Shown here: positions 17,006-19,452 of the stretch, in pieces
Layout: every line of letters begins with the position of its first letter
How positions within the stretch are numbered: the stretch's first letter is position 1
Made by a program: the position numbers and the translations under genes
NCBI GenBank assembly: GCA_031404295.1
Contig: JANNHJ010000361.1
Span: 1-20,513 of the forward strand
Length of the DNA: 20,513 nucleotides
DNA from: Myxococcales bacterium
GTDB lineage: Bacteria; Myxococcota_A; Polyangia; Nannocystales; Nannocystaceae
Direction: 5' to 3'
The notes under the pieces: generated by a model
The model's database searches: none
The model's input: the letters and a program-made list of their open reading frames with translations, nothing else
What the model was told of the DNA's origin: nothing

Positions 17006-19452
17006 ATGACGACTGAACGAGGCCGTGAACGGGACCTGGTGCTCGCCCCCAACGAGTACGCTTTCATCGCTGACGAGACCAAGGGCAACATCAATGCCTA
17101 CGTTGGTCCCTACAAGACCAGCCTCGCCAACACCGATCAGCCGGTCAACTTCAACCCGACCAGCAAGCGGTTCGAACGGTGCTTGCTCGAGGTTGCAACC
17201 CAGAGCTTCGCGGTCGCACCGGTCGGTTGGTACTTGGTGCTCAAGAACCCGACCCGCGACACCAACCATCCCAAGACCGGAGCGATCAACAACCTCGCCG
17301 AGCTCGAGGTTGGTCGCAAGGTCAACTTGCCAGGTCCGGCCGCGTTCGCGCTCTGGCCCGGCCAGATGATCCGAGTCATTCAGGGCCACAACCTGCGCAG
17401 CAACCAGTACCTGGTCGTCCGGATCTACGACGAGGAAGCGGCCAAGGCCAACTGGAAGAACGCGGTGATCAAACCGCAAACCGGCAGCGACGACGCCCCG
17501 CGCGAGGCCTCCCAGCCCGAGCTGACCATGGGCCAGCAGATGGTCATCCGCGGCACCGACGTGTCGTTCTACATCCCCTCGACCGGCATCGAGGTCGTGC
17601 CTGATGCCGGTGGCGAGTACGTCCGCGAAGCGGCCACACTCGAGCGGCTCGAGTACTGCATGTTGCTCGACGAGAGCGGCAACAAGACCTACCTGCAGGG
17701 CCCCGCGGTCGTGTTCCCGAGTCCGACCGAGACCTTCGTGCAGCGCGAGGGCGTCCGCAAATTCCGGGCGATCGAGCTCAACGAAAACAGCGGCATCTAC
17801 GTCAAGGTCATCGCGCCCTACACCGAGGGCAACAAGCAGTACACCGTCGGCGAAGAATTGTTCATCACCGGCAAGGATCAAATGATCTACTTCCCGCGGC
17901 CCGAGCACGCCGTGGTCAAGTACGGCGACGACACGATCCACTACGCCGTCGCTATCCCGGCGGGCGAGGCTCGCTACGTGCTCGATCGGCTCGGCTCGGC
18001 GGACAGATTCGGCTCGAGAAGGGCCCGGCGATCTTCTTGCCCGACCCACGCCGCGAAGTGATCGTTCGGCGGGTCCTCGACGCTCGCCAGGTCGCGCTGT
18101 GGTTCCCCGGCAACCAAGAGGCGATGGCCCACAACCAGCAGCTCGCCGCCAGCAAGTCCAAAGGCGGTGCCGCTCCGGGTGCCGCCCCAGCCGCTCCGCC
18201 CCCGCGGGCCGCCGCCTCGATTCGCGCCGAAGAGGCGTCCGGGACCTACGCCGGCGAGGACTTCACTCGCAACCAAACCTTCAAGGCCCCGCGGACCATC
18301 ACCCTCGACACCCGCTTCGACGGCGCCGTCAGCATCGGGGCCTGGACCGGCTACGCGATCCAGGTGGTCAGCAAGACCGGTGAGCGCAAGGTCGTGGCCG
18401 GCCCCGCGACCTACCTGCTCGAATACGACGAGGTCTTGCAGCCGATGGATCTCTCGACCGGCACGCCAAAGTCCGACGCCAAGGTCGATCGCACCGTCTA
18501 TCTGCGCGTGCTCTACAACAAGGTCTCGGACATCGTCGAAGCCGAGACCACCGACCTCGTCCAAGTCCGCGTCCGACTCTCGTATCGCGTCAACTTCGAA
18601 GGTGACCCGCAGCGCTGGTTCAACGTCGAGAACTACGTCAAGTTCCTGACCGAGCACCTGCGCTCGCTGCTGCGTGGCGCGATCAAACAACGCACCGTTC
18701 AAGACTTCCACCCGCACGCCGTCACCATCGTCCGCGACATGGTGCTCGGGGCCCAAAACCCCGAAGGCAAGCGAACCGGCCGGCTGTTCGAGGAGAACGG
18801 CATGCGCGTCTACGACGTCGAAGTGCTCGGCGTCGAGATCGGCGACGCCGGCATCGAGACCCTCTTGGTCGGGGCCCAGCACGCCGCCGTCGAGCAGACC
18901 CTCACCCTCGACGGCGAGCGTCGCCGACTCGAGCTCACCCGCGAACGCCAACTGATCGAGCAAGAGATCGACATCATCACCGCCGGCACTCGCCAAAAGA
19001 AGTACGCCCTCGATCGCGGCGAAGTCGAAGCCGCCCACGAACTCGCCCGAGCCAAGATCCACGCCGAAGCCGAAGCCCGCCACGATCGCCTCGCCGCCCA
19101 ACTCGCCGATCAAACCCCGCTCGAGGCCGTCCACACCGCCGAGCTCGTCCGCCGCAAAGCCACCGTCGACCTCGAGCTCGACACCGGCAACCGCCAACTC
19201 GCCCAGCGCCTCACCGAGCTCGACTCCGAAGTCCGCGCCGTCGTCGAAAAGGCCAAAGCCGTCTCCCCCGATCTCATCGCCGCCCTCCAAGCCTTCGGCG
19301 ACCGAGCCCTCGCCGAAAAAATGGCCGAGAGCATGGCCCCCCTCGCCATCCTCGGAGGCGAGAGCGTCGCCGAGGTCCTCTCCCGGTTGCTGCGCGGCAC
19401 CAAACTCGCCAACGTGCTCGGCGGTGGTGCCGACGACGTCGAAGTCGAGTAG
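17006..19452 (+). CDS. mvp: Major vault protein (MVP) homolog, about 815 aa if repaired. It has N-terminal vault repeat domains, an SPFH/band-7-like shoulder domain, a long cap-helix coiled coil and a cap-ring tail. In this sequence it is split into ORFs 17006..18061 and (17995)18037..19452 by a +5-nt tandem repeat (cggct cggct cggcg, 17987-18001). Removing one unit gives a continuous ...ARYVLDRLGGQIRLEKGPAIFLPDPRREVIV... reading frame.
   Basis: The N-terminus LVLAPNEYAFIADETKGNINAYVGPYKTSLANTDQPVNF parallels human MVP [50 protein letters not shown] parallels LDENEGIYVQDV. The shoulder ENYVKFLTEHLRSLLRGAIKQRTVQDFH parallels [28 protein letters not shown]. The cap helix and the C-terminal LAILGG...LANVLGG parallel [20 protein letters not shown]. 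This rests on my recall of the eukaryotic MVP sequence and needs HMM confirmation. Confidence 0.8.

Follow-up and report, generated by a model that had tools for sequence, protein, structure and literature searches.

A five-base tandem duplication interrupts the reading frame of a major vault protein gene in a myxobacterium

The interrupted gene and its surroundings

The window, by which we mean the whole 20,513-bp stretch of DNA that was analysed, contains a gene that is read in two different frames and, divergently oriented to it, a gene for a bcp-like peroxiredoxin (Table 1). The latter is a conserved neighbour of genes encoding the major vault protein (MVP), and the same arrangement is present in Nannocystaceae ST9. 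In the public annotation the first part of the interrupted gene is called as a protein of 351 aa (P0124), and the second part as a protein of 464 aa (P0121) that starts at the GTG at position 18058. Both products are recorded from NCBI on one contig of 20,513 bp, which shows that the window is an entire deposited contig; it belongs to an uncultured or draft genome of the Nannocystaceae (Myxococcota). When bases 17986-17990 are deleted, a single ORF of 2442 nt is obtained, which comprises 813 codons and a stop. This agrees with the preliminary description of this DNA, according to which removal of one pentamer would restore one ORF of 2.4 kb. The product of this ORF is referred to here as the repaired protein.

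The gene is a bacterial MVP homologue, usually single-copy and roughly 815 aa in length. The repaired protein matched the Pfam family MVP_shoulder (PF11978) with an E value of 5e-28 (97.9 bits, cut-off 25), the match extending over residues 502-612 and profile positions 2-118 of 118, and its score for the family Vault_3 was just below the cut-off (28.1 against 28.8 bits). A search of the PDB with a profile constructed from the repaired protein and 14 homologues retrieved major vault proteins exclusively (E = 2e-20). These results, and the Foldseek matches to vault chains presented below (E = 6e-28), agree with the preliminary designation of the gene as MVP, which had been made from the letters alone. 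More than 6,000 database proteins matched the repaired protein; the top 120 matches are all 796-849 aa long, many of them are called 'major vault protein' by JGI, and most originate from Nannocystaceae, Enhygromyxa, Polyangiaceae and other Myxococcota. The 813-aa repaired protein aligned without gaps to the MVP homologues of about 815 aa of Nannocystaceae and other Myxococcota. It is 90-91% identical to Nannocystaceae proteins (91% for the best match) and 74% identical to the Enhygromyxa salina protein, and its best match among GTDB representative genomes was ST9 (90%). The sequence search of the PDB did not reveal a bacterial MVP homologue.

Bacterial MVP homologues have been described before in Myxococcales, Cytophagales and Oscillatoriales, including that of E. 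salina (A0A0C2D5V5; bioRxiv 10.1101/872010). The repaired protein and A0A0C2D5V5 are of equal length, and both have an MVP_shoulder/SPFH-like domain and a long C-terminal helix. The window gene differs from the other bacterial MVP genes in that a +5 frameshift disrupts it following residue 330, whereas all 85 other loci studied are intact.

An AlphaFold2 (AF2) model of the repaired protein was calculated from an alignment of 77 sequences and reached a mean pLDDT of 62 (an alignment of 15 sequences had given 49.5), being good over residues ~440-745 and around 320-380, and poor over residues 1-310. Foldseek aligned the model with human, rabbit and rat vault chains over ~750-900 columns (E = 6e-28 to 5e-22; ~790-900 columns for the full-length chains matched at 6e-28), and with the murine R1-R7 crystal structures over ~500 columns (E = 3e-7). 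Owing to its low confidence over residues 1-310, the model does not define the number of repeats. In the model, residues 322-327 and 333-337 form strands of a small beta domain, and Gly330/Gly331, between which the frame is broken, would constitute the turn that connects them. Residues 385-437, beyond this domain, are an Ala/Pro-rich linker; the model then predicts the last repeat or repeats, the shoulder (503-612) and, following it, a continuous cap-helix (613-748; pLDDT ~73-84). The profile alignment places this helix on the cap-helix region of rat MVP (chain residues 464-810), and the junction opposite approximately residues 390-396 of rat MVP, in the repeat body of the shell. The protein has the shoulder and the cap-helix in common with eukaryotic MVP (rat, human and rabbit; PDB 4V60, 9BW5 and 9Z4W), and ahead of them a putative series of small beta domains in the N-terminal part. 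Sequence identity is only ~18-20%, and the N-terminal repeats are weakly detected by sequence.

ST9 carries a 972-aa kinase-TPR gene between the genes for enoyl-CoA hydratase (ECH) and Bcp, which the window lacks. Synteny is lost directly downstream of MVP (window 19453-20513 compared with 12449-16055 of L004 and 2730-3357 of Logan contig L001): in ST9 two HNH-endonuclease genes separate MVP from an RsmD-like methyltransferase gene, in L001 the methyltransferase gene follows MVP directly, and in the window an unrelated ORF on the minus strand follows. Three nucleotides past the MVP stop, at 19456-19551 on the minus strand, lies a 32-aa tail (LWLSGDPETDIDGEARPTTDSTADYVGADIPN, followed by a stop) that matches, with 59% identity (E = 2e-12), the C-terminal end encoded by the adjacent ORF at 19655-20503, also on the minus strand, which encodes a Gly/Val-rich protein of 282 aa with no Pfam match. 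The tail looks like the remnant of the 3' end of a paralogue. Elsewhere in the window, two genes for MscS-type channels (8465-9520 and 11851-12666, both minus strand) flank a Peptidase_MA_2 gene (9682-10734, plus strand) and a DUF2817 gene (10719-11825, minus strand); the latter two are convergent and their 3' ends overlap by 16 nt. Scans for tRNA genes, Rfam families, promoters and terminators gave nothing relevant.

Table 1. Positions of the features at the MVP locus of the window and of breaks in other public MVP genes
Sequence	Feature	Position	Strand	Basis or remark
Window	bcp-like peroxiredoxin gene (AhpC/TSA), divergent to MVP	16399..16866	-	Pfam AhpC-TSA 1.4e-39; single-frame HSP
Window	N-terminal part of the MVP homologue (330 native codons), frame 2, ATG at 17006	17006..17995	+	Translation; 91-92% identical to ST9 MVP residues 5-336
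Window	Perfect (TCGGC)x3 tandem array	17986..18000	none	Tandem Repeats Finder and orthologue DNA
Window	Out-of-frame tail, 21 codons (SADRFGSRRARRSSCPTHAAK) and TGA	17996..18061	+	Translation
Window	C-terminal 483 native MVP codons, frame 1	18001..19452	+	Translation; MVP_shoulder match; frame-1 HSP; AF2 helix
Window	GTGA overlap: TGA of the shifted N-fragment and in-frame GTG	18058..18061	+	Start-codon list
L087	Break near the equivalent site	5040-5065		+1 C in GGGCCCC
L088	Break near the equivalent site	4020-4060		About -2 nt in a G-run; broken again downstream
L089	Break near the equivalent site	3940-3960		+1 nt, after G-P
P0216	N-fragment breaking near the site	JGI 3300045988 contig		13 member sequences

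The pentamer array and the orthologous loci

Instead of the uninterrupted ORF of ~810-830 codons that characterizes an intact MVP gene, the window has two frames; its homologues are 805-849 aa long and are each read in one frame. The frame-2 ORF (17006-18061) encodes ...AIPAGEARYVLDRLG, continues as the Arg-rich tail SADRFGSRRARRSSCPTHAAK and ends at the TGA at 18059-18061; frame 1 encodes ...RLGGQIRLEKGPAIFLPDPRREVIV... and is open until the stop at 19450-19452. The tail has a counterpart in none of the 14 homologues aligned with the repaired protein. The MVP protein of ST9 accordingly produced two HSPs on the window, one in frame 2 (residues 5-336; 17015-18010) and another one in frame 1 (residues 329-814; 17992-19449). 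The 483 native codons in frame 1 encode the end of the hairpin domain, the Ala/Pro-rich linker, the last repeat or repeats, the shoulder and the cap-helix. Frame 2 gives way to frame 1 exactly at a tandem array of three pentamers (window sequence at 17980-18010: gctcgaTCGGCTCGGCTCGGCggacagattc), for which Tandem Repeats Finder reported period 5, 3.0 copies, 100% matches and the consensus TCGGC. It is the sole perfect pentamer array of at least three copies in the window, and first-order Markov simulations of the window predict 0.047 such arrays per 20.5 kb, which indicates that chance does not explain its position at the frame switch. On these points our translations bear out the preliminary description, which had reported a frame 2 that is protein-like up to an Arg-rich tail, a frame 1 that is protein-like from there onward, and a change of frame at three consecutive pentamers. 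The register it had given (cggct cggct cggcg, 17987-18001) needs to be amended: the last base of its third unit deviates, and the array is perfect in the TCGGC register.

In formal terms, frame 1 is reached from frame 2 by a -1 shift, as would be the case if programmed -1 ribosomal frameshifting or transcriptional slippage generated full-length MVP. We attach next to no probability to this explanation. The junction and its vicinity lack an X XXY YYZ heptamer. A single such heptamer, GGGCCCC at 17698, occurs where the two frames overlap; it is 290 nt upstream of the junction and cannot be reconciled with the homology. Moreover, there is no homopolymer of five or more bases, the local structure is not unusual (z = 0.72), and the orthologues are single-frame. 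Programmed -1 frameshifting is thereby effectively refuted.

The preliminary description had proposed a comparison with orthologues, and this comparison proved informative: the orthologues are intact and lack the insert, and the repaired protein is collinear with them. Its alignment with 14 homologues contains no gap around the junction (EARYVLDRLGGQIRLEKGP, against EARYVLDRLGGQIRVEKGP in P0001). The nearest orthologues read GATCGACTCGGCGGC and GATCGTCGCGGCGGC at the site, and the window reads GATCGGCTCGGC[TCGGC]GGA; L001 (GATCGACTCGGCGGCCAG) and ST9 (GATCGTCGCGGCGGCCAG) are both without the insert. In codons, Logan contigs L001-L003 have GAT CGA CTC GGC GGC CAG, ST9 has GAT CGT CGC GGC GGC CAG, and the window has GAT CGG CTC GGC [TCGGC] GGA CAG. 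Compared with every orthologue, the window thus has one surplus TCGGC unit; which of the three is regarded as the insert is arbitrary. The stretch of 15 codons around the site is of invariant length in all 86 orthologous loci. None of the 86 contains a pentamer repeat at the site, and not even two TCGGC units were found there in any orthologue. This suggests that the lineage of the window acquired a two-unit repeat by synonymous change, and subsequently a third unit. The other MVP-bearing loci, which comprise 80 representatives of GTDB species together with contigs from Logan, NCBI and JGI and were collected before split fragments were sought, each gave one single-frame tblastn HSP (85 of 85).

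These data also bear on the suggestion, made in the preliminary description, that the array could be phase-variable, in which case gain and loss of units in a contingency locus would switch MVP on and off. It is indeed a tandem pentanucleotide tract whose number of units sets the reading frame, and in this respect it resembles simple-sequence contingency loci such as the opa genes of Neisseria, in which pentanucleotide CTCTT tracts have this role. Known contingency tracts, however, carry many more units, and the slippage rate falls steeply as tracts become shorter. The window tract differs from the opa type in having only three units, in not being conserved in relatives (0 of 86 loci), and in being located away from the 5' end, in the middle of the gene. 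There it lies within a beta-hairpin of invariant length, so that one tract length alone is compatible with function. We therefore consider a contingency locus very unlikely. The two other causes that had been put forward, mutation by slippage and an indel introduced in assembly, had been hedged suitably and are weighed below.

Origin and age of the extra unit

Slipped-strand frameshifting of the Streisinger type at short direct repeats is a classical mechanism of spontaneous mutation. In the window, the insert duplicates the neighbouring unit of a pre-existing two-unit repeat, and once it is taken out the gene is again collinear with the orthologues, which lack it; its length is not a multiple of three. 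We see no difference from the classical case. A probable sequence of events is as follows. Synonymous change of a CGA or CGT codon to CGG would have caused the D-R-L-G-G codons to read GA TCGGC TCGGC GGA, which is a direct repeat of two units. During replication one strand would have slipped by one unit, giving rise to the third TCGGC. The five additional bases would shift the frame after Gly330, at the predicted beta-hairpin turn in the repeat 'body' region, and the ribosome would then read 21 junk codons up to the TGA. This would leave 483 codons, those for the last repeats, shoulder and cap-helix, in a different frame that lacks a good start signal, and the outcome would be a very recent loss-of-function allele. 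We consider it probable that the lesion is such a slipped-strand duplication of 5 bp, that is, a real and very recent inactivating mutation in a nascent pseudogene. This implies that the extra unit is presumably present in the DNA of the organism, and did not arise during sequencing or assembly, and that the MVP gene of the window is presumably non-functional. In either case this is an ordinary frameshift in a known, little-studied bacterial MVP gene, and no new mechanism is involved.

Apart from the +5 lesion, the MVP gene of the window has no further stops or indels. Nei-Gojobori dN/dS values for the repaired gene compared with three orthologues were 0.13-0.19 for the N-terminal half and 0.09-0.12 for the C-terminal half, similar to those obtained between intact orthologues (0.11-0.19). 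Together, the similar values and the single lesion indicate a frameshift of zero or near-zero evolutionary age; judged by these sequence comparisons, it would be evolutionarily brand new. The absence of decay fits a recent mutation and an artefact equally well.

A possible, though less probable, explanation is therefore that the third unit is an artefact of assembly, sequencing or amplification, and that the gene of the organism is intact and has two TCGGC units. Absence of pseudogene decay, dN/dS of 0.09-0.19 and a single lesion are exactly what an artefact would give, and all of the 85 other loci are intact. In addition, frameshifted MVP fragments are not rare in public assemblies, and some look like errors, for instance the homopolymer +1 in L087 and the multiply garbled P0167. 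The outcome of the search for the same allele also speaks against a real mutation: neither a second genome or contig with the three-unit allele nor an independent contig spanning the MVP junction was found, including among the Logan contigs of the same run. Searches for the exact products (the N-fragment, the C-fragment, ECH from two start codons, and Bcp) returned none beyond the window's own record, and the intact 813-aa version is absent from a collection of 15 billion proteins. When JGI metagenomes were scanned with a DNA pattern of variable gap length, one contig (L086) was found, which originates from a different strain that is ~85% identical and has an intact site. The genome of the window is not among the GTDB representative genomes scanned.

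On the other hand, a clean duplication of a 5-nt unit is atypical of platform errors, the presumed error in L087 being a +1 in the homopolymer context GGGCCCC. The proteins of the ST9 region also argue against an artefact: GGT, pectinacetylesterase (PAE), ECH and AhpC/Bcp each gave one single-frame HSP in the window, so that among the genes common to both regions only MVP is split into two frames. Full-length Pfam matches were also obtained for the remaining ORFs in the window, including those for an HflX-like GTPase, a 2-hydroxyacid dehydrogenase with an ACT domain, a PilZ protein, two MscS channels, Peptidase_MA_2 and DUF2817. Together, these results indicate that the contig is not generally ridden with indels. 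Furthermore, positions 8456-13129 (4.7 kb) are 100% identical to an independently assembled Logan contig of 4,674 bp (SRR20217199_49332, L085, run SRR20217199). This contig, which carries MscS genes, stops short of MVP, but its identity to the window implies that accurate reads of the strain are publicly available. A real mutation is favoured over an artefact on the grounds that duplication of a 5-nt unit is an atypical platform error, that the rest of the contig is clean, and that part of it has been independently reproduced.

If the duplication is real, the question arises whether both halves are still made. In such a split gene the 351-aa N-fragment would stop at 18059-18061, and re-initiation at the GTG at 18058, coupled through the GTGA overlap, would generate the 464-aa C-fragment; the two might still assemble. 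The GTGA overlap is present, pairwise comparisons show the C-terminal half to be under strong purifying selection, and the C-fragment retains the shoulder and the cap-helix, the model being confident over 440-745. We nevertheless regard a split gene as improbable. The GTG is the Val codon of conserved E-V-I codons (GAR GTG ATC), which are present in all homologues, and GTGA is hence incidental; a Shine-Dalgarno-like sequence was not found ahead of 18058. In addition, 19 native residues would be missing from both products, including those forming three beta-strands at 333-352 in the AF2 model, the low dN/dS reflects the history before the lesion, and none of the 85 other loci is split by design. 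That the three-unit allele is not only real but also fixed, and that both pieces are made by GTGA coupling and co-assemble into a two-piece vault-shell protein in a myxobacterium, is more improbable still. In annotation, the ORFs of 351 and 464 aa should be treated as a single disrupted MVP gene and not as two novel proteins. If the allele is confirmed, the strain would be a natural MVP knockout, for which relatives with an intact gene, such as Nannocystaceae ST9, could serve as a comparison.

Breaks in other public MVP genes

Other MVP N-fragments in public data, 334-355 aa in length, break within ~10 codons of the site in the window, and a C-fragment bearing the shoulder follows in another frame (Table 1). 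Of these, L088 is probably a true pseudogene with multiple lesions. The N-fragment of L087, which ends in PHHAAA, terminates at the TGA equivalent to that at 18059-18061 of the window. We considered a frameshift hot spot or a shared mechanism and rejected it. The lesion types differ among L087, L088, L089 and the window; the fragments had been chosen by their similarity to the 351-aa query; all of them stop at the same conserved out-of-frame TGA; and P0132, P0154, P0160 and P0167 break elsewhere. Since this TGA lies within the conserved E-V-I codons, a shift into that frame that encounters no earlier stop ends there with a GTGA overlap. Selection by the 351-aa query, together with the shared TGA, accounts for the clustering of the breaks.

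In two distant lineages, represented by the JGI 3300045988 contig (a faint match) and by L088 (6339-7059), MVP is located near a gene of the RlaP family, and in one of the two it is also near a DUF2828/DUF7788 gene. The RlaP-family neighbourhood is absent from the window; its recurrence might bear on the function of bacterial MVP.
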